A stretch of 61,767 nucleotides of DNA, the filler included, from Choristocarpus tenellus KU-1152 (taxonomy: Eukaryota > Protista > Phaeophyceae), in assembly GCA_964200185.2 (NCBI GenBank). It is 13 parts of 13 records of this genome, joined end to end, with 100 filler letters (N's around TTAATTAATTAA, not from the genome) between each part and the next. Parts side by side here need not be neighbours in the genome. Positions count along the whole stretch, not along the records: positions 1 to 4,017 come from CAXNAD020016651.1; positions 4,118 to 9,019 come from CAXNAD020012595.1; positions 9,120 to 15,112 come from CAXNAD020009216.1; positions 15,213 to 18,985 come from CAXNAD020018004.1; positions 19,086 to 28,451 come from CAXNAD020003744.1; positions 28,552 to 31,272 come from CAXNAD020025321.1; positions 31,373 to 36,312 come from CAXNAD020012450.1; positions 36,413 to 40,469 come from CAXNAD020016444.1; 5 more parts are not named here. One strand, written 5' to 3'. Below, one piece after another: positions 3,219 to 55,563 of the stretch. Made by a program: the position numbers and the translations under genes. Each line of letters begins with the position of its first letter. Position 1 is the stretch's first letter. The notes under the pieces were generated by a model. It saw only the letters and a program-made list of their open reading frames with translations, ran no database searches and was not told where the DNA came from.

Positions 3219-3487
3219 GAGCCAAAGTATCTTAGAGGGTAGAGCCGCGTCCATTTGGGGGTCAAAATACAATGTTGTGATTTTGATGTAATTTTTGCCC
3301 TCGTGTTTGTTAGGGTTAGGGTTAACTGTCAATATCCATGTTCTGGACACATCTTTTTCATAACGTAAACAATTTACCTACTCCGAAGCATTTTGGAGCA
3401 GAAAAATGTCATAAAAAACCCCATGGGAAGCCAAGCCCCAAATGGACAAACAGGGCAAAACTCGTACCCTCTAGGATACTTTCACTC
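3219..3487 (+). mobile_element. MITE family A, TSD CATA
   Basis: TIRs GAGCCAAAGTATCTTAGAGGGTA / TACCCTCTAGGATACTTTCACTC flanked by CATA...CATA; internal (TTAGGG)2 tract at ~3310. Confidence 0.92.
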
Positions 3488-3491
3488 CATA

Positions 3492-3640
3492 GCAAGACCT
3501 TTCACACTGGTTAGAGTGCGAAAAGGCAGACAAGCTATTCGCCTGTAACATGCCCCCCAGCGTGAACTAGGAATACATGTTTCACGCTTACCACAGGCGA
3601 TTATCACGGGTCAGGACAATAAATATCATCTATCACCTCG
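3492..3640 (-). mobile_element. Ty3/gypsy-family pre-PPT region, PPT and LTR start
   Basis: Reverse complement matches 16906-17011 over ~110 bp, including CACGCTGGGGGGCA|TGTTACAGGCGAATAGC. Confidence 0.7.
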
Positions 3641-3694
3641 AATCGTGCTGCAGCAGCATGTATTAGTGGCCACATGGTGACATAGGGGTTCCAG

Positions 3695-3815
3695 TTCCGA
3701 CTCTGTACCGACTCCGTTCCCACTCTGCCAGTTTTTTTTTCGACCTAGGGACTCCCGTTCCGACTCCGTTCCCACTCTGCCAGGTTTCTTGCGACCTAGG
3801 GACCCAGTTCCGACC
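3695..3815. repeat. ~52-bp tandem repeat, a little over 2 copies
   Basis: CCGACTCCGTTCCCACTCTGCCAG...CGACCTAGGGAC occurs twice. Confidence 0.8.
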
Positions 3816-4117: not shown

Positions 4118-4118
4118 T

Positions 4119-4172
<54 letters not shown>

Positions 4173-4410: not shown

Positions 4411-4713
4411 GTGTCGTTCAATGACTATAGGTGTTGTTCAATGACTATAGGCGTTGTTCAATGACTGTAGGTGTTGTTCAATGACTGTAGGCGTTGTTCA
4501 ATGACTGTAGGTGTTGTTCAATGACTGTAGGTGTTGTTCAATGACTGTAGGCGTTGTTCAATGACTGTAGGTGTTGTTCAATGACTATAGGCGTTGTTCA
4601 ATGACTGTAGGTGTTGTTCAATGACTATAGGCATTGTTCAATGACTGTAGGTGTTGTTCAATGACTATAGGCGTTGTTCAATGACTGTAGGTGTTGTTCA
4701 ATGACTATAGGTG
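4411..4713. repeat. 20-bp minisatellite, 15 copies
   Basis: GYGTTGTTCAATGACTRTAG units in direct tandem, no spacers. Confidence 0.97.
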
Positions 4714-6812: not shown

Positions 6813-7066
6813 GTACCATGTACCATGTACCATGTACTATGTACCTTGTACCATGCACCATGTACCATGTACCATGTACCATGCACCATGCACCATGTAC
6901 CATGTACCATGTACCATGCACCATGCACCATGTACCATGTACCATGTACCATGTACCATGCACCATGCACCATGTACCATGTACCATGCACCATGTACCA
7001 TGTGCCATGTACCATGTACCATGTACCATGTACCATGTACCATGTGCCATGTGCCATGTACCATGT
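6813..7066. repeat. 7-bp satellite (CCATGTA/CCATGCA)n, about 36 copies
   Basis: Direct heptamer repeat; it produces the spurious MYHVPCT and MVHGTWY ORFs. Confidence 0.97.
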
Positions 7067-7125
7067 GTGTATGTTCACACTCCGAGGTAGTATGTGATAA
7101 TATGAAACTGTATCCGCTTCACATT

Positions 7126-7421
7126 GAGTAAAAGTATCTTAGGGTTAGGGTACGAGTTTTGCCCTGTTGTCCGTTTGGGGCTTGACTTCCCACAAGTTTT
7201 TATGACATTTTACCTACTCTGAAATGTTTTTGAGTAGGTAAATTGTAAATTGTATACGTTATGAAATGGTGTCTTCGGAACACGGATACTGACACTTCCT
7301 AAACAAGGATATTGACACTTCCTTAACAAACACGATAGCCAAAATTACATCAAAATCCCAACATTGGATTTTGGCCCCCAAATGGACACATCTCTACCCT
7401 AACCCTAAGATAATTTGGCTC
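7126..7421 (-). mobile_element. MITE family A, both TIRs carrying TTAGGGTTAGGG
   Basis: GAGTAAAAGTATCTTAGGGTTAGGGTA...TACCCTAACCCTAAGATAATTTGGCTC; internal sequence is the reverse complement of family A with a small duplication. Confidence 0.9.
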
Positions 7422-7660
7422 GTTCTAAATCCAACATGTATACATACACATGCTGGTTGGAAAACTCCAAATGAATTCACTACTGGTGTGGATTTGCTTC
7501 TGAATTGCATCACTGTGTCAAAATAGGGTTAGGGTTTGGTCAGTGTGGTGTATGACCGAGAAAGAGACTGTTGGTGGTATATGTGGAGAATTGTTTTTAC
7601 TGCTTGTGGTAGTTGTGACATGGGAAAATTTTGTTTTGTCACTGTAACTTAAAGGGCTTC

Positions 7661-7698: not shown

Positions 7699-9514
7699 AT
7701 ATATATTGAGGGGTGATCCTAACCCTAACTCTAAGCTCTTTTTTGTTATTGCAATTTTTTTTGGTTGTATGCGTTTTGGGATAGGGGGGGAGGCGGGGAG
7801 GGGGGGCATTATCCTATTGTGTGTTAATAAAAGTGTTGTATATGAGGTGTGTGTATTTCCTTTGGTAAAGGGGAGGCACTATGATGTCGGCGTTAGGAAT
7901 TACTGTACAGCAGGAGGATAGCCGACACTCGTAATGAACTCTTTCGGGTTGTTGATTCAATATTTGATTTGCCATATTCGGAATATACCTACTGCAATAG
8001 TACACAAACATCAAGAAAGAAATTATGTGAAATGTGAGCTGTGATGTGTGAAATGTTTTGGTTATTATGGATATTTGAAAATCGATGAAACAGTCATTTA
8101 TTTATTTTTTTCAAAAGTAGTCTGTGACAGTTACACAGTGCGGTGTTTGACAAAAGAGAGGTGACACGGGCTACAACTTCTTCGGAAATTTCCCACTCTC
8201 TGTGCACATCGATTGGTGGAGTGGTGTAACATGCCATTTACCGTGAAAGATTGGAAGTGATTTCACATACAATGTCTACACTTTTTCCCTTATACATGTC
8301 ATACCACAACTTGGACAGAGACCCTATTTTTCAGGCTGGTCGCCTTCCTTCCTTTCTTACTTTCCTTGAGACCATATCAATCGATGTGCTTTCAAGAGAG
8401 TTGTTATGAATCGAAATTGTTTTATGAAAAATAAGTATACCTTATTTGGGTCGAGAACTCTTGATTTGCTTGGTTATGATTGAAAAGTACGCAGTGATGA
8501 TGCGTAGGAATTGAATTGAGGCATGTGAAACGCTGAGGTCTGCGAGCGGAGCACGCAGAACGCATTAGCGTGAATAATAACCAATCAAGAACTTCTCAAT
8601 TTTTCGGTTTCAATCTTACTTTGCAGCTCATTTGAATGTAGTATTACGACCATTTTATGTTTGAAGTAAAGTTTACTTTTTAAATCTCCTGTTTTGTTGA
8701 TCAGAACGGAGGGGAAAGACTTCTTCCTGTCCTCGGGGTAAAAAATTAGGGTTAGGGTTTTAGCGCGGGTACATTTATGTATATATTTCTACTACTGTTA
8801 TGTAGTGGTATGATAGGCTGGAGGTTTGGATTGGAGGTGTTAACACCATTCTGAATAAGGGGGGAGATTCACTGTGGTTGATGCGGCCATAACCCTAGGG
8901 AGTGTGATCTGTTGCACGCTGTTGATTGTTTTCAACAACTTACCACAGTGGGTATCGCTGTGTGTGGTGTGGTCACTGACGATCAGGTTAATTTGTGGAA
9001 AAGGCTCAAAGTATCTGGGNNNNNNNNNNNNNNNNNNNNNNNNNNNNNNNNNNNNNNNNNNNNTTAATTAATTAANNNNNNNNNNNNNNNNNNNNNNNNN
9101 NNNNNNNNNNNNNNNNNNNCCTCACCCCCCTCCCCCCCCCCCCCCCTCCCCCCCCGTCGCCCCCCCCCCCCCCCCCCCCCCCTTATTAATTATCCCATCC
9201 AAAGAAAACAAACAGCATGCCACAGGCAAACCAGAACATTTTCTTGATAGCTGTTCATGAGGGTCATGAGGGCCAGATGACATAGATCTTCCCAGTCCTG
9301 TTGAGAATAAAGAGCAGGCGGGGTGTTCAATTGGGTTCTTGTTCCCAAAGTATATGGTAGCGGGGAATGTAGTAGCAATCATTTAAGGTTGCATCAGTTC
9401 AAATTTTGTGTTTCATATGGTGTTGAAAGGGATCCGTGTGCTCTGCATTTGAGCATACTTGAATTTCTCTCCTCTTGATTACTTCACATCTGAATGTCAC
9501 CTCTCATGCATTAG

Positions 9515-15232: not shown

Positions 15233-15422
15233 GGGTCAAAGTATCTGGGGGGGGGGGGGGGGGTGTGATTTGTGAGGGGACGTCTGTTTCGGTCAAACTA
15301 GTCTTTTTTTTGCTGACATTCCAAATCCGACACGTGCGACCAAATCACACCAAAAAAATGAAAATCGAAAAAAGGGCGAAAAACGGACGCCGACACCCCC
15401 CCACCCCCTGATACTTTGACCC
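15233..15422 (+). mobile_element. MITE family B (~190 bp, TIRs with poly-G/poly-C)
   Basis: GGGTCAAAGTATCTGGGG...CCCCTGATACTTTGACCC; a homologous right end lies at 19086-19186. Confidence 0.85.
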
Positions 15423-16240
15423 GATGTCCGCTAGACAGAGACACAGAGAGAGAGCCAATACTTTAATATGCTAGGTCTTCACCAGGACTCGGATCCAAGC
15501 CAGGTGACCTAGTTCTAGTAAAAGAAGCGGACAGCTCTATTTATGGGGAAAAACTAGGCCAGACAAGAGTAGGCAGGAAGCTAGTCCATGAAAGGTGGAC
15601 AGGACCGTGGACTGTGAAGGAAATTTCACGTAGGAGTAGTAGAATGACAGTAGAACTGCTAGGTAGGCAAACGCGCAAGTGTATTGTTCATGCTTCTTGT
15701 GTTTAACCCTTCCACGTAAGACCCATCCATCTGAGACGTAGCTTCCAAGAGGAATATGCTCAACTAATGTGGGAGTCGGACCTGGGTCTAGCAGAACAAT
15801 CCGTGGTAGCAACCCCTATGTACACCCTCACTGACAGGAATGCAGTACTGTCACCATCCAATGTATGGCACTGGGAGTACAGGGGGAAGTATCAGAATGG
15901 AGAATTGTCTGATTGGATTACCGAGAAAGAGGCTATGGGTAGCTTCACCCCACTACAGTTAGATGTCTTCCATGCCCTATGGGACCCGTATAATCCAGAC
16001 ACGAGCCCACGTCCTACTGACACCTCTTGCCAAGGAAAACCCTTGTCCAAAGAGGATGCAATATGCCTTTTCCCTACAGGTACCACTGTCAAGAAGTCAT
16101 GGAAAGACAAGAAGGGAAGGGATAAGTGGTACAAAGGTACAGGTTTTGACTTCAAGTCACCTTACTGGAGGGTACGGTTTAATGATGGGGATTGGGAGGA
16201 AATGAACAAAAGCGAAATGAGTCGCCTCTTCCAAAAATGA
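15423..16240 (+). pseudogene. Ty3/gypsy integrase C-terminal region (GPY/F module, chromo-like segment, Tudor-like segment)
   Basis: One frame from 15500: PGDLVLVKE...RKLVHERWTGPWTV...HASCV*PFH...WHWEYRGKYQNGELSDWITEKE...FPTGTTVKKSW...WYKGT...YWRVRFNDGDWEEM, with a single in-frame TAA; followed by PPT and LTR. Confidence 0.8.
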
Positions 16241-25009: not shown

Positions 25010-25980
25010 CTTGTATGTGCTATTAGGTAGCACTTGGTGTCAACAACGTGTTCCAGGGATATGCGGTGATGGCAATGACCAGTGGCTTGTATTCACATGA
25101 ATCTGTTGTTGTTTAGACACCCAGCCATGGGACATGGTGAATGTAGTCCCAAGTCGTTTATGCATTTATTTTGTTAGAGAGTGGGAACGCACCTCTCTTT
25201 TATGTGTGTCACTGATAATAGAGCTTGGCATACTACAGAGCATGGTCAGTGATACTCTAAAGTAGGGAGGTGCAACACTGCTAAGACATTGATTAATGGA
25301 AACATGTGATGTGTCAGTCATGATGAATAATATTAAATATTTTACGAATAATATCACTCCCCTGGAATGACCCCACATACACATGACTGCACTGAAGAAT
25401 TTGCTACCAAGCACTACAACACAACCGTCATAGACCCTGTTCTTGTACTATTGTCATGAAAGAAATGGAAAGATATTGTATTATGTTGCTCTTGTGGTTT
25501 TTATTACATGGGGAAAAATGTAGGTGATTTTGATGTTAATATTATGAAGGAGGGATTTATTTGTATTACGCACCAACAACTGAGAGTTCTATTTTTTCAT
25601 TTTGTTGTACTGATTATTATACTATGTTCACCGTGTTCTATCTCCCCCCCCCCATATCGCACATATATTTGTCCTATCAGTGGCCAAGTAAACTATAGTG
25701 TATAGTACAGAGAAAAAATACATACTTGTTTACGAACTTTCTACACACAATATTGTTCACTGTATCCTATCCCGATGTAGTGGTACCAGTACGTTCGCCC
25801 TCTGGTTTCACTATATAATAACATTTTTTTTGAGGTGAACAAATGTTCACCTAACCCTGTATTGCGTTTGTGGGGTTTGTGTATGTACATAATCCGATTG
25901 GCTCAAACCATGTCAAAATAGAATGGTGAACCCGAGTTTAGAACCAAGGCCATATTTATCTAAGTGTTGAGGGTTAGGGT

Positions 25981-28230: not shown

Positions 28231-28244
28231 AACAGAAGCAAAAT

Positions 28245-29030: not shown

Positions 29031-31272
29031 TTGCCCATAACGACGGGACAATGTTCACATGCAATAAGCGAGTCACCGTCGACGACATCTTTGGCCACGG
29101 ACGTGAAACGTCTCCTGTTCCACTCCATGATGGACGTCGAATACGAAGGTGCTGCCTTGGACATCCCCATGAGGGCCCTCAACTTCCTTGTTAACAGGCT
29201 CGATAATAACGTCACACATATCCTTCTTCACAGAAGCAGCGATTTTTTTTTTTGTAGAAGATATAGGACATCGTTAAACTGTAACAGAACGAGCTGGGTG
29301 ACGGTTCAGGGGTGTCATTCTATACCACAAGTTTATTTCCCGAATCGTTACGTTAAGCGTGGAAACAACGAAGAGCGTGTTGCCCTGTATCGGAAGGTAC
29401 TGCATACACTGCGAAATGATGAATCCGTGCGCAATACAATACCACGTTAGGCCTAATTTACGAACTGCCCTCCCACGCTAGGTACATGAATGCTGGGGAC
29501 ACCGTCGTCTCCTACAGCGCAGAGAGGCACAATGTGGTGGAGGCGGACCTTGAACGGAGCAGGAGGGTGGAGGTGTTCGTGTCCAACGCGGCGTCAAGGA
29601 CGAGGTGAAGCAGAGGATGGACACATCCTTCGGCCAAGCCTACGAGGAGGGCAAGTGGAAGGTAAGAAGGGTGTGCTGGCTTCTTTTTTTTACATTGCTT
29701 TCCAACTTGTTTGTACTACAAACCCTACAGATAATAGGTCTCGAGCTTGCAATTGTACTGGTGATGTTTCCTTGTAGATGTTTACGAGTAGCCAACTTTG
29801 TGCACGCAGTTACCCACACCACCAATGGAAATCGCGAGTCCCCAAGTCTTTGCTGTGATTGTGAATACGTCGTAACGTCCCCATTCCCACACAAAAAACA
29901 TAAAAGCATGCTGCAGTACATCACAACATCTTTAACCAACTAACCCTAACCCATACATATATGACAAAACCTTATCGCATGGCGAACCCACTTCACTGCC
30001 ACATTATTGGACTGTCACATATACGCACGTGATGCTACAGATATCCACGTCTCTCGCTCAAGAACGCGTGATAGGCCCTTCCTGCCTGCCGAGAGTCTTA
30101 GGGCAGACCATCGTCCCAACGGAGACGCATCAATGTTTCGCTGAGGCTGTCCATCCTAAGGGAAAGGCGATGGGACGCGATGAGGCGACCATATTCGTAG
30201 CAAAGGCAGTGGCAACGGGGTTAGGCTACCAGATCGAGGTGAATGTGGTATGGAATGAGTAAAATTATCTTAGAGGGTGGTAATCTTTAACTGTTTCTCC
30301 ATTTGTGGGGCTTGGCACATGATGGACTTTTGTTTCTGACGTTTTCCGTGTCATTGGTATGTTTCGGAGTAGGTAAAATGTATACGTTTGTGGGGCTTGG
30401 CTTCCCACGTTTTTTTTCTATGACATCAGCCGGCTCTGAAAATGTCTCGGAGTATGTAAAATGTATACCTGGTGAAAGGTGTCCGAAATTCTGATATTGA
30501 CACTACTTCCTAACAAACACGATATCCAAGATTTCAACAAAATCGCAACATCATATTTTGACGACCAAATTTACGTGGCTCTTCCCTCTAATATACTTTG
30601 GCTCGAATGCGCTAATTTACTGATTTTGTTAAGAACGAACAATATAGTTTAGTTACCAACACACACGATATACAATTTATTTTTATTCGTAAGTCCTAAC
30701 CTACCTAATGCGGCACCCAAACACGTCGTGTACAAATATGTGGCCCTTAGGGGTAGTATTGCGTCGGTAGTGTGTGTGACTTCTTGCCACAACAATGTTG
30801 CTGTCTCTGCACCACCTTCTTCAGACGGTATTACCTCCAATTAACCAACACTCATAAATCGCCGAACTATAACCCCCGATCAATACCCCTTGACCCCACC
30901 CAACCCCACCGGTGTCTTTGTTCTCCGTAATATTCAGCCGCGTGCAAGCTCGTCCTCAGATCCCGCGGAAATGGCCTTGCACCCGCTCGAAGGGAAAGGC
31001 TACAAAGTCGGCTGCGCGGACATCCCTGCTTGGGGCGATCTCATGGTCTGCAACTCTCGATCGTAGGCCTTCGATTCGCTCTCCCCCCAAGACCGGGAGT
31101 TCCTAAACATTCGTCTACTCCATGTGGCCAGTAACAGACAGCTCAAGCGCATGCTTGAGCCTGATAGGAAGGTGTGTGGGCCGGGCGCAGAGCTCTACTT
31201 GCGCGTGGCAGCCACTTGCCCTTTGTACTACATGCGTTGGACCGAAAAGGCAGACGACGCGAACATCGAGTT
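29031..31272 (+). pseudogene. Unidentified GC-rich, intron-containing degenerate coding sequence, possibly TE-derived
   Basis: Exon-like blocks with splice signals (~29482-29661, 30041-30238, ~30939-31272) carrying frameshifts and stops; no recognisable family. Confidence 0.4.
30257..30604 (-). mobile_element. MITE family A with internal duplication, TSD GAAT
   Basis: GAAT|GAGTAAAATTATCTTAGAGGGT...CCCTCTAATATACTTTGGCTC|GAAT. Confidence 0.88.
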
Positions 31273-31372: not shown

Positions 31373-31439
31373 CAAAATCGCAACATTGGATTGTGACCTC
31401 CAAATGGATGCGGCTCTACCTTCTAAGATACTTTGACTC
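31373..31439 (-). mobile_element. MITE family A end at contig start
   Basis: ...GGCTCTACCTTCTAAGATACTTTGACTC. Confidence 0.85.
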
Positions 31440-31533: not shown

Positions 31534-31792
31534 GAGCCAGAGTATCTTAGAGGGTAGAGCCGCATCCATTTGAGGGTCAAAATCCAATGTTGGTTTTTGA
31601 TGTAATTTTGGCTATCGTGTTTGTTAGGAAGTGTCAATATCTATGTTCCGGACACATTTTCGTAATATATACATTTTACATACTCATAAACATTTTGGTG
31701 TAGTAAAATGTCATTTTAAGAAAAAGCATGGGAAGGCAAGCCCCAAATGGACAAGCAGGACAAAACTCGTACCCTCTAACATAATTTCACTC
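31534..31792 (+). mobile_element. MITE family A
   Basis: GAGCCAGAGTATCTTAGAGGGTA...TACCCTCTAACATAATTTCACTC. Confidence 0.9.
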
Positions 31793-32653: not shown

Positions 32654-35646
32654 GGTAGCATTCAACTCATCTGCCAAGGACATGCTGTGCTACTCCTGGC
32701 AAAACAAGCTATACCTTCGTACTGGCTCGTTCCCTGTACTGGAGCAGGTGTGTAACGTTCACCCCTTTGCTCCCATGCACATACCCTGTTGTCTATGTAT
32801 TGTTATTGCCAAATGTCCATGTACTACCCGTTTGTCATCACCCACCACCCTCTCCAATCTTGCCCCACTTCTACACCCTCTTGGTTCTGCGTTTTCTCGT
32901 TCATAAAGTATGGTTTTACTTTCTTCTCACACCTACGCTTGCTACCCATGAATAGAATGCATCCCATCTTCTCACTCCCCTCGACCCCCCTGAAAGAATC
33001 AAAGTATTTTATTAAGAGGGTAGAGCTGTATCTGTTTGGGGTCCAAAATCCAATGTTGCGATTTTGATTCATTTTGGCTATCGTGTTTGTTAGGAAGGGT
33101 CAATATCCTCGTTCTGGACATACCTTTCATAGTCGCATATATTTTATGTAACTGTATTGACACAGAAAAACCGAAAAGGGGCAAGAATAACCCGTGGGAA
33201 GCCAGGCCCTGAAAGGACAAACAGAGCAAAAATGCTTTGGGTCAAATATAAAGCAATTCCCCACCTTGTTGCTTGGTATTCCACTTCTATTAACAGGATA
33301 TGTTCACATGCATAGCCTTTCCCATGTCGGATCTGCATTCCTACCAACATCATTACCAGCAGCACTAGTAATACTAAAAGAATGTGCACTCCAACCACTG
33401 CTTCCACTGCCAATCCTGCTGAAGAAACGACCTACAACAGCAGCAATAATTCAAGCTACCAAACAACCACCACTGACTGCTACTGCTACTTCATTTTATC
33501 CACCAACCACAACTCAATGCCAAAAAGATCCAAACATCTACAAATTCCGTTGCTTGCAATATTTTCATCGAGACCTCAACCCTCTAAATTTCCAACAGAA
33601 TCTTGATGGGGAAGTAGTGGGCTACAGGGGAGCACGTGTATTCAGTGTCAAAGGAGTAACACTGGACACCAGAGATGTACCCCAGACCTTGGCTGTTTAC
33701 AGGTACATTGAGGCAGGTGATTTTGAGGCCGCATACAGGGTGGCCTGCCTTGGTATCACTCAGGTGAGATAGGTATGCCGATTGGGAGGGAATATGAGAG
33801 TTGGACTAGGCTCTCAATTCTTTGTGGTGCATCAAGCCCACTCTACAACTCATCCTTAGCGCATCAAAATGTGAAGGCAATGCTGTGTTCATATAATTGG
33901 TGATGATAATTGGACTCTGTAAGACAGTCATGAAATTTGTCATCCTAAGACTGTGAGGTATTATGTCCGTGAAGTTGTGGGTGCTCGTGCGTGGGTACTC
34001 AATTTTTCTGGGTGTTCAGATTCTTATCGAATCCCACATTATTAGTGCTACTTCAAGTCAATGTAGACATCATAGGGTTAGGGCTAATGCTGTACGCCAT
34101 ACAGATTGGTAAGCGCGCAAGTATGCATTTGAGAACTCGAATTTTAACACATACCTCAATGGAGCAGCTGGGTTTGTAAGAAATTGAGATACCACTGGAC
34201 TGCCAGGGAAGATAGTAACACAAGTGACTGCCTACGTGGAACAGTAGTATCTCAATCTTTGACCGGTTTTCTTTTATCAGCATGGAGCAGAAGAAATGCA
34301 TGAAACCAGTCATCAGTGAGCGGCTAAAGGAACACTGCTAACTCCCCAAGTTCTCTGTTTCTTTCCCATCGACACTTCCTCCAATACACACATATCTCCG
34401 TCATCATCACTAGTTATCTTGCTTGCTCTTCTATGAAGGAAGATATCTGTTGCCGTGTTTGATTTCTGAGCACAATGTTTTTCATAGCTAACTGGAGCAA
34501 TACCGATTCGACTGTGCCGCGGGCAACACTATCTCCTTTGAAGGAAGCAGGATACAAAGGCTATTTCATGTCTCTCTCACTGTAATAACCGCATCCTGCC
34601 GTGCTCGTAGAGTGATTGGAAAATCCTAGGCACCTCAGCCCTCCGGGCAATGAATCTGGGCATGAGCAGGAAGGCTTTTATTCGCCTTAAGGATGTGAGT
34701 TTGATGGAAGTACTGGCAAAGATTGAGCTGCGTTGTAAGCAACAACAGCAGCAGCTATCACTTGGCAAGGACCCAGAAGCTAGGTAGGTCTGCTTGGGTA
34801 AAGATGTGTGGGATGCAGAAGAGGAGGATTTCGAGGGTGCTAACCCATCGCTTGTAGACAAGATGTCTTCATCATGGTCTCCGCACCTGATAACTAATTC
34901 GGAGTACGAAACAAGCGCTTGATGCCTAGACCAAGGAACAACCGCAAGCGTCTTTGTGGAGCATACGTGCAGCATAATGGCAGTACTCCTTTCGCGATAG
35001 AGATAGTATGCTTACTCAACCGTTACAAATTCCAGTGCATATGGTATCAAGTAAGGGTTCCAAAAGATGACATACAATCCATATAATCTGTTGGAGAGTC
35101 AATAGCAAACGAGAGGTACACCAGGGTTGCCTTTTTAAGGAGGTCGACAAAATACGCAAAAATATTCTGCTTGTGCAAAATAGACATGGGAAATTTTCTG
35201 AATTCCATTGAAAGTATTGAAATAATAGAGAAAAAAATGCTCTCAAGTCAATCACAGCAACTTTTATTTCCATTGAAATCAGGGTGAATTTGCACAAGAT
35301 TAAATCAGTGGCTGCAAAATAGCCTAAACCTGGAACCCTCTTGCTTGCTTTGATTCTGGAGCGAGTGGCTCTATGGTAGCGTAAGAGGGCATCGGGGAAG
35401 AGAGGATCAGTTGTCGAATCTCTCTTAATGAATGGCATGTCCAATTTTAGGTGGTTGGGTAGAATACATACGGAACCTCCCACTTTTTTTTCATGATGAG
35501 TACTTTCATGGTTTGCTATTGACACTTGCCCCTGTCCCTTCAATACTTGCTGCGCAATCACAACCGCAAAACACAGGCAGAAAATAGAGCAGGATGCGCT
35601 CGCAGAGCTCCTTGCCCACGAAGGGATATACCAGGAAGCGGCGAAG
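32654..35646 (+). CDS. IFT122: Intraflagellar transport protein 122 (IFT-A), internal exons
   Basis: Phase-compatible exons 32654-32747, 33599-33763, 34611-34783 and 35577-35646. Spliced VAFNSSAKDMLCYSW...GEVVGYRGARVF...DVPQTLAVYRYIEAGDFEAAYRVACLGITQSDWKILG...KAFIRLKD...AELLAHEGIYQEAAK matches the IFT122 motifs SVAWN/DMLCFS, GFVVG, AYQIACLGVT.DW and KAFIR. Confidence 0.92.
32996..33243 (+). mobile_element. MITE family A variant (TGCTTTGGGTC right end) in an IFT122 intron
   Basis: Family A left half; right end shared with 50592-50825. Confidence 0.8.
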
Positions 35647-35941: not shown

Positions 35942-36161
35942 GACCCAAAGTATCTTAGATGGTAAAACCGAGTCCATTTGGGGGCCAAAATCCAATGTCG
36001 CAATTTTGATGTAAATTTAGCTATTATGTTTGTTAGGAAATGTCAATATCCACGTTTCGAGACACCTTTTTGTAACATATACACTTTACCTACTCCGAAA
36101 CATTTTGGAGTAGGAAATTTTCATTAAAAAGACCATGGGAAGCCAAGCCCTAAATGGACAA
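35942..36161 (+). mobile_element. MITE family A interrupted by a family C copy
   Basis: GACCCAAAGTATCTTAGATGGTA...GCCCTAAATGGACAA, then an abrupt switch to a family C TIR. Confidence 0.85.
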
Positions 36162-36312
36162 GGATCAAAGTATCTGGGAGGGGGTAGCGGCTGTCCATTT
36201 TGGGTCAAATTTTTCATGTCGCGATTTTTGGGTGATTTTGTTGCATACGTCGGATGGATACTGTAAATGTACTTTTCCTTATTTTGGTCCAATGGACACC
36301 CTGGTGTAGACC
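36162..36312 (-). mobile_element. MITE family C nested in family A, truncated by contig end
   Basis: GGATCAAAGTATCTGGGAGGGG...; reverse complement of ~28275-28420. Confidence 0.85.
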
Positions 36313-36428: not shown

Positions 36429-38696
36429 ATGTCCTGGATAGACTACTGGGCTGGTACATACGGGCAGTTCATGCCTCACAAGCCCACAATTGTGATCTAC
36501 GCCGCGAACAAACAGGTAGGTTTTGCCCTTGGTGGTGGAGAGGTTGGCCGCATCCTGGGTTGGAGGATGTTCATTACTTGGACCGGTCTGATATTAAGGT
36601 TGAACGAACATGTGAAGATTCGTACCAAGGGCTATTTTTTTCGTTTGCTATGTCTAGGATACAATGATGATGATGATACTCTTCGTCGCTTTTACGGAGG
36701 AAGGCACAGTAACTGTTATTTCGACGCCGTGTACACATACTATGTGGTCCCGGTCCCGGTCTGACATTGGTAGGGTCAAGTTATTGGTCAGATCTTCCAG
36801 GGGTGTTCTTCGAGTGTTCCTTCTCAATAACTCATCACTTTCCCACACAACCAACATTTTTAATTAGGAGCTATACAAGGATTTTTGCAAAGAGGCAATA
36901 CGAGTGTATCCTGACGACCCTTCCAAGCGCGTAAGCAAGGCGCACTTCCTCCGGTTGCTCAGAGAGGAGACCCAACATCAGGGTGAGGGTAGGAGGCGAG
37001 TTTATGAAATGTGACATATGTGTCACCTTAAAAGAGAAGCGTCACGGTGCGCCTGGTGTAAAACCCACGAACGACTCCACCGTCCTCGAGGCCATCGATA
37101 AGGAGCTGTCAGAACATCGAGAGGTATGTGTCCAGCATTAATTTTGCAACAAGCGTACAGTGGCAACATGTCGCCGCCATTGCCCTCCATTTTCAACATC
37201 TGTTTCCGTTTGTGAATGAAGACTCCCACGCAGGTGCTAATGGCAACAGGTTAGATACTCGAGGACGAGTACATCCTTACACCATGTGCCTACAGATACC
37301 GCAGCCCTAGTGAACAGTCGATTAACTGATTATGCACTGTGCTCCCCTGCCATCCTACGCATCAGCTTAGGGTTAGGGCGAGAGGAACGTAAGAGCTAAT
37401 CAACGGAGGAGGGAAACCCACACACATGTATATCAGCCAGTCGGGTGTATGTGCTCTACATCACAAAAATTCCATTACCCCTCTTTTTTGCTCCAAATAT
37501 ACAACGCGTAAGTAAGCAGAGTACTATTTGCCAACTAACGACAGACAGCATCGTTCGCGCAGGTTGTAACCTTGTCTGCACAGCCACCCACCTTGCCCTC
37601 ACAAGGATTATCGACAAGTACCACAACAGCCTTGATCACGCGGGGAGTAACATCATCCAGCACGCGCATTGGCAGGGAAGAAAGTTTCATCTTGACACGA
37701 CCTACTCAACACATACTCGCTGAATACCGGTCACCAAAAATCTAACTGCACGGTCTTTAGTTTTGGTTAGTTTGTTGCTTGTTGCATATATCATGGCGGT
37801 GATGTAGACCTTGCGCTCTAGCAGTACTGGAAACATACACTGTTCCTCCACGAAACGCGGCGAAATGGTCTGACATATCGGCCTCACGCCTATCCCTCCC
37901 TCCCTCCCGACTCCCCAAACTTGCCAGGTCGACAACTGCGTCTCAGAGAACAAGAACAATTTCTTCCTCGGATATGCGGGGCTGTTGGTCGCGGCGAGTG
38001 TCATTCATGTGGTCGAGATACACTTTATGATGGTGGGGCACACGCATATCAAAATCGATCAGATGTTCTCCAGGTTATTAGGCAAGATATGCAAGTGCGA
38101 TAGCCACATAGTGTTTTCATAACGACAGGTACTACCTTAAGGCTTGCGGCTCACGCTTGTTGCATCCATGTATGGTATATGGTCATACACTGTAATTGAT
38201 TGATTGGCTTTTGATTTTCCCACCAAAAAATTGAACGATAAGAGCAGCTGCCAAAACTATTTCCTAACCTACTGTACAAACAAAACAAAAACAAAAAATA
38301 CGCATCACCCCTTCTTACATCTATACTTCCATATACATGCATCAGAGCATGTGCCCGCATATATATCTTGCTTCTCCACTTCGTTTCTTTCGCCCCCACC
38401 TCAAAACTAACTTGCTTGCATTTCACCTTCAGGTTCTCACGTGGTATCAAAGGCCAGAACATATTCACGAGAACACAGCTGGGTGAAGAGCTGCAGGCCT
38501 CATACACGGAGGTTCCTGTCCACTGGAAGACCCTACGAAACGAGGGCAACTTGAAGGGACTCCTTGGCGGTCGCGTCAACCGTGTCCTGAACATCACGCG
38601 CTACAGGGCCTTTCGCATTGAAAAAGGCGGTGATGAGCGGGTTAAGGTTAGCGTTAAGCTATACATGCACAGCACCGAATGGAGTGGGATAGACGG
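36429..38696 (+). pseudogene. Intron-containing Sola1-like (DUF7869-type) DDD transposase, degenerate
   Basis: Exon 37928-38073 VDNCVSENKNNFFLGYAGLLV...FMMVGHTHIKIDQMFS splices to exon 38433-~38696 RFSRGIKG...; upstream blocks WIDYWAGTYGQFMPH, ELYKDF...SKAHFLRL, RCAWC and DHAGSN fit the family layout. Confidence 0.8.
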
Positions 38697-46256: not shown

Positions 46257-48918
46257 ATGATTCACATTGGCTACACCGGTGTCCTCAGAGATAGGGTGAC
46301 GGGGCATTTCTGTTTGACCGCGGACGAAAGATGCCGAACGAAGACGTGGATCCTCCCTTCCCCTCTCACAGATCGCCAAGCGAATGTCAGACCCGTGTCG
46401 TCGACCCTAGAGCATCGTGTTAGCTCGGGCGACCGTGACACTCATCGGGTCCTCTTCCAGGGAGAACCAGTCCCACCCCCAAGTTCAACTATTTGTGAGG
46501 TGGCCACTTCACAGGCACAGTTCGGGGACTCTGTGCCATCGTACATCGCGCACCACGTTAACGAGTGCGCCAGGACAAACACTGTGCCTCCTGGATGGCT
46601 CCAGGAGCTCATGAAACTTCATGCTCGGGGAATGGACTCCGATCACATAAGAGCTGTTGAACAAAGTAGCAGCGTCGCACGCCCATCATCAACACCAGAA
46701 GCGAGTCATTTCAGGTTTTCCGCTTCGGAAATACCATCTGGTCTTGTCATTACAGGTTCGGGAGAGGAAAATTTACCACTCTTGTTTTCCAAATGGCATG
46801 TGGCGATTTCCTTGCACTCTAGGCAGTATAGTACCGCATCCCCTGAGACAATCAATACTCGATGTGTAGAATTTTTACCGAAAATTCTTCAAGGACCAGC
46901 TGAAACCTTTTACTTTCAGGAGTTGGCAGGCACAGTAGAGTGGCGTTCAACTAGTGATCTGGCTCGGTTACAGTCGTCTCTTGACATTCCCATCCCCATT
47001 ACACTACCAAAGACTTGGGAGGATGTCCAGAAAGCCCTTATCACTGCGTTCACTCCTGCCCATGCTATAAGTGTATCAGCTCGTCAACTAACGTCCTTGA
47101 AACAGGGGGAGAACGAGTCTGTTGATCAGTATACTTAACGTTGCACCACAGCAATGAATTATTTTTTGGATGATGTTCATCGCACAACGTCGTCCTCAGA
47201 TGCAGTTGACACGAAAGCTTTGCTTGTCGAGCAACTAAAGATTACGCTGATGGAAGATGGTTTACTCCCTGCGATTCGTCTTGAACAGATTCGGGACGAA
47301 CCTTGCCACCTCGTTTGCACAAGCTCGTGACCGTGCCAAACAGCATGCAGCTAACCATTTGTCTGGCCATAACCCCAACCCCATGACTTACACGAGTGCT
47401 GTGACTCACAATTCTCGTCGCGGACAGGTTCCTCGTAGCAAACTCAAGCAATCACAACGAGAGTGCCAACGGCTATGTACGGAGGTGGAACGTCACCAAG
47501 CAGGGGAGGTAACCCTCAACACGGCCCCAGCTCGGTCGTCGGCGGGTCCACCTCCCTCAGCCGTGCACACTGACAGACCAATGCGACCCCAAGACACGTC
47601 GCCCTATTCAGCCTCACCGTCCAGCTCGACGTACACCATGGATCAGCAAAATAGTGTGTGCCAGTACCCGGTTTGTCAGGCAGCGACTCGTGAGGGTCAC
47701 ACAACCCAGTCGTGCCTGGACAATCCCCGGGGTGCTCGTTTGCCATACTTGCATCGTAGAGGCAGGGGTCGTGGCAGTTGTGTTCGTGTTTGTGAGGACA
47801 GTGAGTCAACACCTGGCCATTATGGTCCGCGTCCCTAGGGATGCCCAGGTGGATTTGACTCCTGTCCACTTGGGAACAGCCATGGTGTTGTTATTGACAC
47901 CATCGCAGGGAGTGGCAAGTGTCAGAGGTTGACGCCAGTCGTACTTCTTGCCCCGCAGGCATCGTTTATTGCCTGCACGAGTGTCACCAAGCATTTTTCT
48001 TTGCCATTAGTTCAACCAAACTCGTGTAATAATAATGAAACTTGGTTCAACAGTTCTTTGTGCAGATATCCATCCATGCCCAAACCTTTGTCGTTTTCAT
48101 CACAAAGAGTGCGTGTAACTGGCATCGTTGAAGAACAAAAGGAAAATGACTTGACAATTGACAGCCAGTGATGTACCATGTATTTCTGAAATATTTGTTA
48201 GCAATCACCCTCAACTGAAACGTTTTGATGTGCATCCTGTCCCACCTGCTGCAATAAATATACGTGCCGCAAATGGTTAACCTTTGCATATTCGTGGATT
48301 TATTCGTTTTGCACTTACGAGCCAAAGTATCTTAGAGGGTAGAGCCGCGTCCATTTGGGGGTCAAAATCCAATGTTGCGATTTCGATGTAATATTGGCTA
48401 TCGTGTTTGTTAAGAAGTGTCAATATCCTTGTTCCCGACACACCTTTTCACAACGTATATATTCTATCTACTCCAAAATTATTTTGGAGTGGGAAAATGT
48501 CGTAAAAACCCTGAGGGAAGTCAAGCCCCAAATGGACAAACAGGGCAAAACTCGTACCCTCTAAGATACTTTCACTCTTACACTGGGTGACACCACATTG
48601 CCAGTTGAAGCTTTAGTGATTCCCCAACTTGGTCCCGATAAAATTCTGTTTGATATTTCAGTGTTATGCAGGCATCCGGTGCAATCCTTGATTGGCAAGA
48701 ACAACGCCTTTCATTTCACAACAGTTCGTGTACCATTTCAGCAAGACATCACATGACAAGGAGCCCCACTCATTTACGTGATACAAGTACAACTCCTTCG
48801 TGTTCTGTGAGTGCATGTTGGCAGATTCCTGTTGCTGAGGATGACATGGATAAAACCCCCTTTGTCACGTCCAGAGGCAACTACGTTTTAAGAGGATGCC
48901 CTTTGGGATATCAAATGC
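46257..48918 (+). mobile_element. Degenerate Ty3/gypsy gag-protease-RT fragment
   Basis: Gag PKTWEDVQKALITAF...ARQLTSLKQGENESVDQY; knuckle-like CQYPVC...GHTTQSC; protease region split by a MITE; RT start WQIPVAEDDMDKTPFVTSRGNY. Confidence 0.88.
48319..48577 (+). mobile_element. MITE family A inserted in the gypsy protease region, TSD TTAC
   Basis: TTAC|GAGCC...CACTC|TTAC; removing the MITE and one TSD restores the frame IRGFIRFALTLGDTTLPVEALVIPQLGPD. Confidence 0.95.
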
Positions 48919-49131: not shown

Positions 49132-51263
49132 GAAGAGAAGAGAATTAGAGCCTTCCAGATACTGGAAAATGAGAAGAGAAGGGGGAGGGAGAGGGAAGTC
49201 CAGAAAATCGATGATAAGAAGGTCCTTGAGGCAAGCAAGAGATACCTCAAGATGGAGAAGGAGTTACAGGCAAGCTCTCTTTCAGATGCTTGAGATTGCT
49301 CTAGAGGCTACTCTGTATGTATATGTAGCACCAGGTCATGTTCATGTGGGATAAATTCTCATTGTAGGTATTTCAAATGTTGAGGTGACAATATGCTTCC
49401 AAAGGCATCAAAGTTAATGATAAGGCATCGCAAATGTTGAAGAAGATGGATAGTATTTCCCCTCGGGGAGATATTTTTTCCATTTTCACCCGAATCTGTT
49501 GCATACATTTGTTGTTATAGCCATAACCAAGTCAACATGCTTCTCCCACAGCGTTCATCCAACAACAGACCAAAATTGATCCAAAAAATTATTCATGATG
49601 GTGATCATTTCAGCAGGAGAATGTTGCAATAGCTGGACCAGTAAGGTTTTCCTCACATCCCTGAACGAGTTCAAGTTGAACTAGAACAGTAGCATGTCAT
49701 TGAAGGGTAAGAATGTCCCGCCTTCATTGATAGATCTCTACCGTGCACTAGATCTCTCCTCAAAACAAAGGGGAATTGACACTGTTGAAATTATGAAGGG
49801 GCAGCATGTGGCCCTGTAGAGCCTTAGACCAGTCCAACTTGAGGCAAAAATAGTGTTGCAACAACCTCTATCAAAGCAGCAAGATGCCCAAGCAAGACTC
49901 CACTCTTTCGACTTGACAGAATCAATCAAGTACGTCCCTGGACGGAATGTAAACCAGATGGGATTTTCTACTTTTCTGCATACGTTCGCAACCCAGGAGG
50001 TGGTCTAGATGTTCATCAATCTCCAACTTGATTCAACTTACCTAGGGACCATGAAGAGCTAGGTTTTTTGCGCGTGAAGATCGGGTTTTGAGGGATATTT
50101 GGCGACCCAGTTTGACACACAGTGTGCACGTAATAATCGAAAATGCAACAATACCCTACCCATGCAAGAGATAGCACTGCTCCTAAAACAGCCCTGAGGC
50201 TGTGGTTAAGGCATAACTTGAGACTATTTCTTTGTGCGGCTGAGAGATGGAAGGTGCAAATGATCATCGCTAGACTGACTGGTGAATCAAATGCAAAACA
50301 CCTTTTTGCACAAGACTGTTGAGTCAAAGTATCTCAGAGGGTAGAGCTGAGTCCGTTTGGGGGTCAAAATCCAATGTTCTGATTTTGATGTAATTTTGAC
50401 TATCATGTTTGTTAGGAAGTGTCCATATCCTTGTTCCGAACACACTTTTTCAAGCGTATACATTTTATCTACTCCAAAATGTTTCGGAGTAGGTAAAATG
50501 TCATAAAAAAATCCTGTGGGCAGCCAAGCCCTAAACGGACAAACAGGGCAAAACTCGTACCCTAACCCTAAGATACTTTCACTCTGTTTCTGAGTCAAAG
50601 TATCTTAAGGTTAGGGTAGGGCCACGTCTGCTTGAGGTCCAAAATCCAATGTTGGAATTTTGATGTAACTTTGACTACCGTGTTTGTTGTAAAGTGTCAA
50701 AATCCTTGTTCCAAACACACCTTTCATAGTTGTATACATTTTACTGTCAAAACAAAAACCGTGGGAAGCCATGCCCCAAACCGACAAACAGGGCAAAACC
50801 CCTGCCCTCTTAAGTGCTTTGGGTCAGCTATATTCAAGAAACGACAAGCTATGGCACTGGATGCACTTCAGAGTTTGAGCGCAAGCACTCTGATGTCCTC
50901 ATAGCCCAAAACGAACTCAGCCTGAAACCGTAAGCACTAAAAAAAAAAGCTGGAAGCAGCAACGTATTTTTCCAATGATATCAAGAAAAAAATGGTCAAG
51001 GTTAAGGTTAAAGGCTAGGTCGGAATCAAACTTGAAACTCTTTTCTTTTCCTCTGCAATGACGTTTCCTTTGCAATGATCTTCCCTCTCCAACACGTTCT
51101 CTTTGTGTATGTTGAAGGTGAGGAAGCGCAGAGAGTATGCAGAGTCCATTAGAGCAATGTACCGCAAGAATGAGGAGGACAGACTGCTTCGAGAGGAACA
51201 GAAGGTCCTAGACGGCGAAGAGGGCAAACGCCTAATGCACCTCTACAATGAAAAATTGGACAG
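49132..51263 (+). CDS. Coiled-coil protein, probably TPH-domain ciliary family (CFAP45/CFAP53/MNS1-like), two internal exons
   Basis: Exon 49132-49269 (EEKRIRAFQILENEKRR...KMEKELQ, GC donor) and exon 51118-51263 (VRKRREYAESIRAMY...HLYNEKLD); E/K/R-rich helical sequence. Confidence 0.55.
50321..50584 (+). mobile_element. MITE family A, TSD TGTT, right TIR with telomeric tract
   Basis: TGTT|GAGTC...TACCCTAACCCTAAGATACTTTCACTC|TGTT. Confidence 0.93.
50592..50825 (+). mobile_element. MITE family A variant, 7 bp from the previous copy
   Basis: GAGTCAAAGTATCTTAAGGTTAGGGTA...TGCTTTGGGTC. Confidence 0.85.
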
Positions 51264-52838
51264 GTACACCATGTCAAGGGATATCGTCATTGGTGCTCCT
51301 GCCACCATTGCTTTGACTTCACCTTCACCTTCTCGACCACCTTCACAGAATTCGTCATGGTTTGCACCCCAACATGTACCTCTAGTACTCCTTTGAACCA
51401 CTCCTTGAAGAGAGTCCCCCCAATTGGAAAAAATGGATCTATTATTTTGAACCCTTCTCGAGAACCTATAGCAGCTTTATGCCCATGATTGCCTGCCTCA
51501 AGCTGTGACGAAATAGTAGGCACTAGTTCAACGGACAAATGGTTGTGGGGGTAACAGCAAAGGATGGTAGGAGCTGTAATAGCAGGAAAGGGATGAGCAG
51601 AAATAGCAGATCAACAGGAGGGGGAAATTGTTCAAAACATGAGCATTTTTTGACGATGGAGTAGTAGCCTGAGCATGTCACCTGGAGCCAACACCCAAAG
51701 TACCTGGGAGGGGGGGGGGGGCTANNNNNNNNNNNNNNNNNNNNNNNNNNNNNNNNNNNNNNNNNNNNTTAATTAATTAANNNNNNNNNNNNNNNNNNNN
51801 NNNNNNNNNNNNNNNNNNNNNNNNCCGCCCCCCACACACTGTACTACTACCACATCCGGCACGGATTCCCGTTCAAAAAGGGGCCCTTAAAAAATGCCGC
51901 AACATTTACAAAAAAAAAATATCAGCACTTTTTCCAGGTCAATTTTGGGTGAAACCCATCCTCCATAGTACGCTCAATCCTCAATTTTGGTGAGACGCTG
52001 TTTCATGCAGATCAGGTCCACTAGTCTTTGTACTCGACTCCCTGGTACAAGAATTGGAAATATATGGTGAATATTTTCCGTCACACATGAAGCAAAGCTG
52101 GCAGTTTGTTACGGAGGTCTTCCATGGTATACAGCATCCAAAGTCGGAATCTTTAGTTGCATCAAAACCGACATGTCCTTTGTTGGCAGTAGTGGTGTAA
52201 GAATAACTGTACCTCAAATCATACATAGATTTCCAACGAATGGCATTATCTTCTCTTAAATCGTCGGAACAGCTTGGAATGAGGCATTATTGGAGCGTGC
52301 TAGGATATATGTAGAACAAGAGCTTCAATCGTACGATACTGAGAGGAATTATGGGTTGCAGTTTTATTCTTGTCCAGCCACAACCCTACTTTTTTTGACC
52401 TACTGTTTCTTGTGGACCTCTCCTGCTGACACAGTATTGGTGTCTCAAAAAAGAGAGAGCATTGCTTTTGATAAGGAACGCAATTGCTTTGCTTCAAATT
52501 GGAGTCAGTGAAGACTTGTAACTCCCACTCTAGAGATTGCTTGCTGCCTCTTCTATAAGGTCCAACTCACGTAGGAGGGTTTTGCACTGGCTCTTATCTC
52601 GAGGAAATCTACTGGATGAAGCAAGGAGGAGCGTGCAAACTACTGTCTCTATCCGAGGGAGGGCTTACACACCGCTTCACAACCCATCTCAAGAGGCAGC
52701 AGCTGCATACACACACAGAAAAGAAGGCCACTTGTCTCATCATCATTATCTGCAAGGGCGATAATTTCACCACTCCCAATATTGCCAGTAGTGCTCTTCA
52801 TTCTCAACCCCAAACTATCCCCCCTCCGGGATCTACTC

Positions 52839-55315
52839 TTATCCACTGAGCTGTGAAACAGATTCACGCAAGTCCTTCAGTTGTTGACGGTATGTGTCAG
52901 CATCTGCTCTAAGAGCAAGATTGGACATCCGTAGCTTCTTGACTTCTGCCACAAGCAGCTTCTTCTGCTGCTTGAAAGCTGCCTCTTCAGCCTCTGCCCG
53001 CTGTTTCTCGAACTGGAGCATATCTTCCAGGACCTTTGTCTGCCAGGCAAGGGATTTCCAATTATTAAAAAAAGTCAGTAGTCCGAAGTAGAGGAAATCA
53101 CAGGCACAACCAGCCGTATGTGATGAAGAAAACTACCTCTGAGGCGTCGAACTGTCTTAGAGAACTGAAAAGGAAATAAACTACAGAAACCCTAAATAGA
53201 GTGCCCAACCCTAACCCCTAACAACATTGCCGTAAAAACCCAAGAGGTAGAAGAACAAATATACAACCAAAGTAGTCTTGTACCTCTGACTCCTACATAC
53301 ATAAAACATGCCTTTTTAAACAACCTTGATCTTAAATGACGCAACACATGTGCCTACAGAAGGATGTAGTGCTCCATTTGCTGCTGTGTTTGAATGACTG
53401 TACAATAACCGAAGCCTAACCCTAACCCTATTCGTATGTCTTGAATACTACCCCAACAATATCATAGATACATGGAGTAAGTGGGATACAAAACCCTTCC
53501 CGGAGTCTGCAGGTGCTTTTTGAAACAAAAATATCTTGTGAAATTCGGATCAATCAATCAACTAATATTTTCAATAGTCTCACTTTAAATCAAGTGTTTG
53601 ATTGCAATTGAGGCTGATCATAGTGATGGCAATCATGAAGTATGGTCCATTGGTTGTGGTTAATGGAAATAGAAGTAGTTACCTATAATCAACTTAGGGT
53701 TAGTCACAGGCAGGCGGCGTTCAGCAAGGGGGTGGTAAATGAGCAAATTTTGCAGGAGGAGAATGGCAAACAATGATACTGTCGAGGCTAATCACTCACA
53801 AGCCTGTAAAGAAATGAGGATATCAAAAGATGAGCCCACATCACTCTGAGTGAGATAAGGGCATCCTTTTCATTAAAATGTTCTGTGCATTACCAACTAC
53901 TAACAACTTGAGCCCCCAATAACATATCCTACGAGTCCTGTGTATATCAACATCTTCAACGAGATGGGTTTCAGGTCAAATAATAGGCAAAACAACTGTC
54001 AAAATATAAAAAACAACAGGTCGCCCCCAACATAACAGAAATGCTCCCCTCATTCATATTATGCACCCTACGCACTTGTGTTACGAGTTGGGGATGATAC
54101 AATAGCTTCATTGACAGGTTAGGACGTTAGTTCAATTTCAAAATAAATAAATATGTACGTATGGTGGGATGAATCAACGCATGTAGCCTACACTGGGGAG
54201 TTGAAGAAATGACTCCAAATTGGCCCCTAAGTGACTTGTATCCAGGGTTCCATCTGAAAGTAGGACCTCAAATCAACATTATACCCTCCCTCTCTCTGCC
54301 TTGCTCCCATGCTTCCAAGCACACACTCACGCACAATACTTGTCTATCTCGAAAATTGGAGGAGATAGTCCACTGGTCCAACTCAGTAGTTGCACCAGCC
54401 ACAGTGCTACTACATACCAAATCACACAACAACAACAACAAATAGCAATAACCCTAACCCTAACAAACACAACAACGAGGCAAGCCCAGGAATCAGCAGC
54501 ATCATCCCCCCTCACACTGCCTCACACGCCACCAAAATAACAAAACTATCCTGATCGAAAACACACAACACTGGCAAGCTTAACATTACACACGGCAATT
54601 GTCCCGACCTGCTTCTGCATGGCAAGCTTTTGATTCTCAAGCTCTGTTTGGTAAGTAACAGCCTTGTCCATGGTCTCCTTGGCCACCTTCTCCATTTCCT
54701 GTAGGCGGCGGGGCGGGGCAAAACAGAGAAGCGAAAGTCTTAGCGATCTAGAACATTCTAAAAAATTATGGTGTCGGCGGAGACCGGCGAGGCCTTCTCA
54801 AGCATCAAACTACCCGTTGGAGAGTCGTAACACCTACACCTCAAAATAGATAATAATATTAAAGTAATACAACTCCACATCTCACTCTCCTTGCCAACAA
54901 AGATAAACCAATATATAGCGCTCTCAAGTATTGCACACCGATCCAGCTGCCGGAGCAAAATCTTATCACCTATATCTCCACCCCATGAGACACACTATCT
55001 CTGTAGGGTGTAAAAAATGCACGTTGTCTTACAATAACTCACTATCCTGGATGCAGGGGATGCTTTCCACATAGTCAGTGCAAAGAATAGAAGGGAAACA
55101 GGAGGGAGGATGGAGAACAGGAGGACTCTTACGTTGCATGGAAAGTGTTGGCTCCATAGTACATCCAAAGCACTCTGACCTGCGTTCTGGAGTCCAGGAA
55201 GGATATGACCTCTTGATCAGAAGCAGACTGCCGGAGGGTAAGTCCCTTCTCATCCAAGCTACGCTTCAGTGCCAGCTCTGTGTCCTTGAGCTTTGATACC
55301 AAGAACTCCTTTACA
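52839..55315 (-). CDS. Coiled-coil protein C-terminus resembling the plant PX-domain EREX/EREL family
   Basis: Exons 55315-55180, 54698-54609 and 53033-52839 (stop). VKEFLVSKLKDTE and KKLLVAEVKKLR resemble EREL VKDYLTTKVKDLE and KLLVKEVKSLR as I recall them. Gene structure is good; the family is tentative. Confidence 0.6.
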
Positions 55316-55456
55316 CTTTCAGTGCCCTTTGCCGAACATAACACGGGAAGGAGGGGNNNNNNNNNNNNNNNNNNNNNNNNNNNNNNNNNNNNNNNNNNNN
55401 TTAATTAATTAANNNNNNNNNNNNNNNNNNNNNNNNNNNNNNNNNNNNNNNNNNNN

Positions 55457-55563
55457 AACCATTTTGGAGTATGAAAATGTCATAAAATAAACCCGTGGGA
55501 ACCCAAGCCCTAAACGGACAAGCAGGACAAAACTCGTACCCTAACCCTAAGATACTTTCACTC
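55457..55563 (+). mobile_element. MITE family A right end with telomeric tract
   Basis: ...CTCGTACCCTAACCCTAAGATACTTTCACTC. Confidence 0.88.

Follow-up and report, generated by a model that had tools for sequence, protein, structure and literature searches.

Dispersed short telomeric tracts in a brown algal genome, one of them carried by a transposable element, and their possible origin by templated insertion at breaks

Our analyses of a stretch of DNA from the brown alga Choristocarpus tenellus KU-1152 (assembly GCA_964200185.2), 61,767 nt long and hereafter called the window, reveal a dispersed excess of very short TTAGGG tracts that is real and telomere-specific, some of the tracts lying within copies of a miniature inverted-repeat transposable element (MITE). 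The window consists of 13 pieces joined by 100-nt spacers and is eukaryotic DNA of 43% GC. Both the size band of the tracts and their register speak for templated insertion, for which telomerase acting in the course of break repair is the simplest candidate. Comparison of the copies indicates that the tract in the terminal inverted repeats (TIRs) of the MITE is likely to be a trait of one subfamily, multiplied through transposition and transferred from one inverted end to the other, and that the events open to reconstruction most likely number about two, the TIR gain and a gain in the interior of another copy at 3309, rather than six.

Perfect runs in the TTAGGG frame were found 15 times at a length of at least 11 nt in the whole window, 12 of them reaching at least 12 nt, and the telomeric class ranked first among 350 hexamer-periodic classes. 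Markov simulations (40 per order) led us to expect 0.125, 0.25 and 1.5 runs of at least 11 nt at orders 2, 4 and 5, respectively, the order-5 model having been trained on the tracts themselves, whereas each of the nine hexamer classes of the same composition (anagrams) held 0-1 such runs. The excess over chance that a preliminary description of this DNA had estimated is thereby borne out (15 runs against 0.25 at order 4), and the control hexamers on which it had made its claim depend are not enriched. At lengths of 6, 7, 8, 9 and 10 nt the telomeric counts were 93, 22, 6, 3 and 1, which is close to or at the bottom of the anagram ranges (95-147, 21-42, 6-19, 1-11 and 0-2) and hence no enrichment, and the 15 longer runs form a separate band at 11-16 nt, with 3, 2, 6 and 4 runs at 11, 12, 13 and 14 or more nt and none above 16 nt. 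Because there is neither an excess at 6-10 nt nor anything longer than 16 nt, one-step templated insertion fits this spectrum better than slippage. Tracts of up to three units had also been described; none holds three full units, the longest being 16 nt.

Outside the MITEs, 11 tracts of at least 10 nt are present, one per 5.2 kb. Six lie on the plus strand, at 7524..7536 (13 nt), 8746..8759 (14 nt), 25970..25980 (11 nt), 34073..34083 (11 nt, in an intron between two IFT122 exon matches), 37367..37378 (12 nt) and 53694..53703 (10 nt), and five on the minus strand, at 7718..7729 (12 nt), 29940..29952 (13 nt), 53207..53217 (11 nt), 53415..53430 (16 nt) and 54449..54464 (16 nt). All 11 had been listed before, and all are in the sequence, the one at 53694 being just 10 nt long and on its own within chance. 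Tracts occur in nine of the 13 scaffold pieces. No consistent flanking duplication was found at the 11 outside tracts, nor were they associated with CpG-rich or GC-rich surroundings (p 0.13-0.86). Clustering was weak, five of the 11 having a neighbour within less than 300 nt (p~0.01, at a threshold picked post hoc; p=0.05 at a threshold of 1.1 kb). A fossil chromosome end was ruled out, the tracts being dispersed and on both strands. Degenerate telomeric tracts with at least one mismatch, possibly older scars, were also noted at 22358 and 38639.

The MITE is an element of about 260 bp with 13 full or partial copies in the window; family-A copies differ by 7-10% from the majority sequence and four other copies by about 20%. 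Family-A ends read GAG...CTC, and a 4-bp target site duplication (TSD) accompanies five of the ten two-ended copies. On the plus strand, unconverted copies (those in which the TIRs show no telomeric gain) lie at 2258..2516, at 3219..3487 (TSD CATA, with the internal telomeric gain), at 31534..31792, at 35942..36161 (right end replaced by a G-rich sister element), at 48319..48577 (TSD TTAC; our reference for the unconverted end) and at 55859..56118 (TSD TGTG), and on the minus strand at 30257..30604 (diverged, with an internal duplication and TSD GAAT) and at 31373..31439 (left end at a scaffold gap). Copy 7126..7421 on the minus strand, our reference for the converted end, has the gain GGTT at both TIRs (7139-7151 and 7396-7408), a marker base at 7173, discussed below, and an internal 23-nt duplication. 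Two plus-strand copies have a converted right TIR together with the marker base, 50321..50584 (TIR at 50559-50571, TSD TGTT) and 55457..55563 (a right half at a scaffold gap, TIR at 55538-55550). A second subfamily comprises two further plus-strand copies, 32995..33245, inside an IFT122 intron and with a non-telomeric 4-nt gain at its left TIR, and 50592..50826, with the left TIR TTAAGGTTAGGGTA at 50605-50618.

Three public sequencing runs from one study (X1, X2 and X3, of which X1 is possibly the source of the window itself) were drawn on for contigs; contig depth in them is not copy number. Among X1 contigs, 1,177 extend past the left end of the MITE and 808, 425 and 238 past the right end, so that the family must have well over a thousand copies. 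In many X1 contigs a right end is followed by a left end, the intervening letters being few or unknown (87 and 56 contigs in the two most frequent classes), so that copies are often direct neighbours, whether head to tail or side by side, as seen at 50584/50592.

A telomeric gain inside pre-existing sequence was found at two MITE sites for which unconverted sister copies exist. At the TIR, TTAG|AGGG became TTAG GGTT AGGG, a net gain of 4 nt; as previously described, the unconverted form CTTAGAGGGTA stands at 3231, 31546 and 48331, the form with GGTT at 7139 (+), 7396 (-), 50559 (-) and 55538 (-), and the one-mismatch form TTAAGGTTAGGGTA at 50605. In the interior of copy 3219..3487, GTTAGG|AAG became GTTAGG GTTAGGGTT AAC, a net gain of 9 nt with one substitution, which yields the 16-nt plus-strand tract at 3309..3324, also as described before; this is likely to be a separate, second event. 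Both gains are in telomeric register with their seed (TTAG, 4 nt; GTTAGG, 6 nt), neither is a multiple of 6, and 1-4 shared bases are available to close each of them, so the earlier proposal of addition at telomere-like seeds agrees with the two gains that can be reconstructed. The GGTT gain sits just inside the outer ~14 bases that sister elements have in common. The 4-nt gain of copy 32995 (window 32995-33022), overlooked in the preliminary description, occupies the same left-TIR position, and being non-telomeric it implies that the site tolerates other inserts.

The distribution of the TIR tract over left ends, right ends or both had been taken as a mosaic produced by repeated independent events, and this is not borne out. 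A marker C situated 30 nt inside the tract is present at all three converted right ends (7126, 50321 and 55457), whereas that position is T in all seven unconverted family-A copies (Fisher p=0.008; p=0.012 without copy 35942, which has no right TIR); the count leaves out the second-subfamily copies 50592, where the context of the C is altered, and 32995, which has neither base. When X1 contigs were placed on the converted copy, depth at 7143 was 118,812, with 14,471 (12,982 + 1,489) lacking the four nucleotides, and 9,101 of 87,941 lacked the marker at 7173, so that about 90% carry it; the marker-less share is similar to what CpG decay produces at other positions of this copy. On the unconverted reference the marker C made up 279,565 of 2,510,015 in X1 (11.1%), 9.9% in X2 and 4.9% in X3. 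Single pieces have a depth of 12-43 in X1, far below that of the converted end, which must therefore stand for many copies; allowing for up to 31 counts of the same place, a rough floor would be some 80-170. The GGTT end, being present in X1 contigs, is not peculiar to this assembly, even though X1 may be the window's source, and for the TIR tract we therefore reject an assembly artefact. The left converted tract had a depth of 18,397 in X1, 193 of these gapped; in a further 442 contigs the match breaks off at 7400, beyond which an unconverted end follows. No longer tract on the converted end appeared among the 12 indels at a frequency of at least 1% in X1. On the unconverted reference the GGTT gain was not among the 12 indels listed out of 16, probably through clipping of short contigs, and this result was not used. 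In X3, a contig at 48556-48578 (depth 103) has an insert of 26 letters beside the right end of the MITE, the last 12 nt of which are a telomeric run, possibly another multi-copy telomeric junction.

Local and quantitative observations bear on the same point. The gain in copy 50592 lies 7 nt from the converted end of copy 50321, and the pair forms an inverted repeat able to fold into a long hairpin (-20.2 kcal/mol, z -7.4, with none of 200 shuffles as good), so that a local donor for the 50592 gain is at hand. At the rate found outside, the 3.1 kb of MITE sequence would be expected to hold 0.6 tracts but holds five; one or two origins fit that rate where five do not. That every converted TIR goes back to its own telomerase event at a hot seed, as the preliminary description had it, could account for the mixed occurrence at left, right and both ends, for the gain in the second subfamily too (50592, which groups with 32995 at 98% bootstrap) and for a star-like tree without a clear single clade, and GGTT might simply be the favoured product of this seed. 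We nevertheless consider such separate events very unlikely in view of the marker, both in the window and among the contigs on the converted end, of the number of tracts within the MITE, of the inverted donor adjacent to 50592, and of the single length of the converted end, the other tracts varying from 10 to 16 nt.

How the tracts arose can be set out as a sequence of steps. The proposition that telomerase adds about one unit at telomere-like broken ends, and that one such scar in a transposon end was then multiplied by transposition, seems to us evenly poised. A break or nick would leave a 3' end finishing in TTAG or GTTAGG; brief extension by telomerase would follow, TTAG plus GGTTAG giving, through the shared AG, a net GGTT; and end joining would close the product before a telomere could form. 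The TIR would have undergone a single such event, or a very small number of them, in a lineage with the marker base 30 nt away, and the element would have stayed mobile, the gain lying just inside the ~14-nt shared terminus. The left ends (7396 and 50605) would have been reached by copying between inverted ends or, alternatively, would descend from a master with both ends converted. The telomerase process of the preliminary description is thus supported in part, by the telomeric excess and the in-register gains, and loses its repeated events at the TIRs.

Several observations weigh against telomerase insertion followed by spread from one origin. The ancestral state is visible at two sites only and at none of the 11 tracts outside MITEs, and loss of AG together with duplication of TAGGGT can also produce the GGTT gain, with no need for telomerase, although no intermediate of this kind was seen among the indels at a frequency of at least 1% of X1 on the converted copy. 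The role of telomerase is inferred, the enzyme, its RNA template and the organism's own chromosome-end repeat not being in these data, and no brown algal telomerase template is given in the available text of PMC13236599, PMC8287931 and 10.1101/2024.02.19.579948; there is likewise no matched baseline for tracts of 11-16 nt from other genomes. As regards one origin, eight family-A copies yield a star-shaped tree: descent of all converted copies in one clade, which would speak against repeated events, is not rejected (p-AU, from the approximately unbiased test, 0.40), yet these copies fall on one side of a branch in 16% of bootstrap trees. The marker is one base and lies in a CpG, and the aligned contig set leans to the reference used, which inflates the figure of 90%. 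Finally, the converted right end amounts to about 3% of the unconverted one by depth and yet to three of ten in the window, a discrepancy that is unexplained.

Other explanations dispense with telomerase or with insertion as the decisive force. The tracts might be binding sites, similar to telo boxes, for a telomere-repeat-binding protein, which ordinary mutation or an occasional insertion would create and selection would retain; such a site would be well served by a narrow size band close to two units, plant telo boxes are reported to be regulatory (PMC3022908), and the weak, post hoc clustering of outside tracts would be in keeping. Selection of this kind appears unlikely, given that the surroundings are neither CpG-rich nor GC-rich, that single units are not enriched, that at least one tract lies mid-intron and one in the interior of a MITE, and that the registers in which tracts start and end vary. 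Repair synthesis that copies telomeric DNA or RNA after pairing at the seed, with telomeres as template and without telomerase, would predict the same in-register seeds and non-integer lengths, and an alternative involving retrotranscribed material is mentioned in PMC7215372; the 16-nt ceiling would, however, follow more easily from a short template and low processivity than from the copying of long arrays, and we regard this route as improbable. Ordinary slippage or tandem duplication of TTAGGG-like seeds draws some support from the wealth of microsatellites and small duplications in the window, from the 3309 seed being a whole hexamer, and from the four non-telomeric bases gained by copy 32995 at the same TIR site. 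It gives no reason, however, why this one class of 350 should be favoured; the gains are of 4 and 9 nt, the spectrum has neither an excess of short runs nor a long tail, and no variant with six additional nucleotides reaches 1% on the converted TIR, all of which makes slippage highly doubtful.

The chromosome-end repeat of this organism is likely to be TTAGGG, by relatedness to Ectocarpus only, for which that repeat is reported (10.1101/2024.05.11.593484); xanthophytes have TTTAGGG (PMC3622300), and just two runs of this 7-nt type, 10 nt each, occur in the window. Telomerase-type micro-insertions at breaks are a kind of event already known, and the tracts described here are unusually short and dense. 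Short interstitial telomeric sequences (ITS) of mammals are reported to have arisen by in-register gains at a break (PMC2246262), with TTAGGG added in one step within pre-existing sequence (PMC2246262, PMC7215372), as here; they show 1-8 in-register bases at the break, from which telomerase was inferred, and the gains described here are likewise in register. The catalogues of short ITS list tracts of four or more units, at 229 loci in human and 142 in horse (PMC2246262, PMC7215372), a cut-off called arbitrary by its authors (PMC7215372), whereas our tracts all fall short of three units, with about one in every 5 kb, thresholds so different that the densities are not directly comparable; moreover, one scar here is carried in a mobile element. 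Plant telo boxes are similarly very short, dispersed telomere motifs, for which a model is proposed in which non-processive telomerase adds about one unit at free 3' ends before error-prone repair (PMC3022908); both gains match such non-processive addition, but telo boxes are single units concentrated in 5' gene regions, whereas here only runs of 11-16 nt are enriched and there is no link to CpG or GC content. Frequent interstitial TTAGGG is also reported genome-wide in the coccolithophore Calcidiscus leptoporus (PMC13518057), a different lineage, the comparison with which is confined to TTAGGG frequency and does not extend to the size of tracts, their ancestral state or their mechanism. In human cells cut by Cas9, end joining likely makes a short telomerase product interstitial if shelterin is not loaded (10.1101/2022.10.31.514589), an expectation that both gains match, although those are induced breaks in cultured cells and ours a fossil, inherited pattern.

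In the literature covered, mostly that outside subscription journals and bioRxiv supplements, we found no account of brown algae with dispersed telomeric micro-tracts, nor of MITEs whose ends have gained telomeric sequence. The DNA transposon TBE1 of Oxytricha has telomeric repeats in its inverted ends, where they are known as the outermost sequence of all copies, whereas the tract described here starts 13 nt inside and occurs in a minority of copies. The density, the 16-nt ceiling and the carriage of a scar by a mobile element may be new. Tentatively, and with less than even confidence, telomerase might regularly fill in breaks during their repair in this organism and leave scars of a capped size, 11-16 nt, about once per 5 kb, with the MITE as their archive and as a mobile telomere seed. 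Were this true and the window typical, there would be some 19,000 scars per 100 Mb, and thousands of MITE copies would form an archive of filled and empty sites showing register and template boundary. In mammals, the case for telomerase insertion at internal breaks has so far been built on tens to hundreds of loci, and a similar proposal exists for the telo boxes of plants; here its register, length and joining rules would become measurable on thousands of events, far from animals and plants. The TIR tract also carries a caution, namely that a scar inside a mobile element, multiplied by transposition, mimics repeated events.

Further short elements share the outer terminus of the MITE (~GRGYCAAAGTAYC), followed by G-rich or poly-G sequence, at 9003, 15233-15422, 19186, 28242-28420, 36160-36312, 40606, 45683, 49057 and 51692; many scaffold gaps fall within such G-rich sister elements, which are probably moved by the same transposase as the MITE. 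Sola2 elements have the termini GRG...CYC; family-A copies read GAG...CTC, and ends of the sister elements begin GGG, GGC or GAC. Short TIRs starting with GAG, GGG or GAC and 4-bp TSDs, the TSD length reported for Sola2 (PMC3627910), suggest that the MITE is a Sola2-type non-autonomous element, although its TSDs are not all of the AWWT type; Sola-2 is listed for Ectocarpus (PMC12477816). A metagenome scan with the TIR pattern returned at least 120 loci, none of which resembled the MITE outside the pattern itself (26-38 nt at best), scans of viral contigs brought up nothing related to it, and no transposase family was recognized among the 14 open reading frame (ORF) pieces scanned out of 44 listed.

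Besides these elements, the window contains IFT122 exons at 32.6-35.6 kb and the remains of retroelements. Four IFT122 exon matches span 32544-35649 (+), one intron harbouring a MITE and the following one a telomeric tract; a representative search with an exon returned 166 relatives, and a homologue search among longer proteins gave no match. Retroelement remains comprise a Tudor-like ORF with brown algal relatives at 15707-16240, for which the top identity among 37 relatives was to the only one bearing a species name, from the brown alga Choristocarpus tenellus (63% over 56% of the query), and a Gag piece at 46257-47138, downstream of which MITE 48319 is inserted; no relative of the retroelement ORF was found in the viral-contig scan. 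CpG observed/expected ratios range from 0.24 to 0.93 per piece, and C>T and G>A changes dominate among the MITE contigs, which together suggest DNA methylation; most brown algae are reported to be without DNMT1 (10.1101/2024.02.19.579948), so that methylation would be in keeping with a lineage that branched off early or with a close outgroup. Two minisatellites were also observed, one at 4411-4713 (20 nt x 15) and one at 6813-7066 (7 nt x 36), the latter ending 60 nt before the doubly converted MITE.

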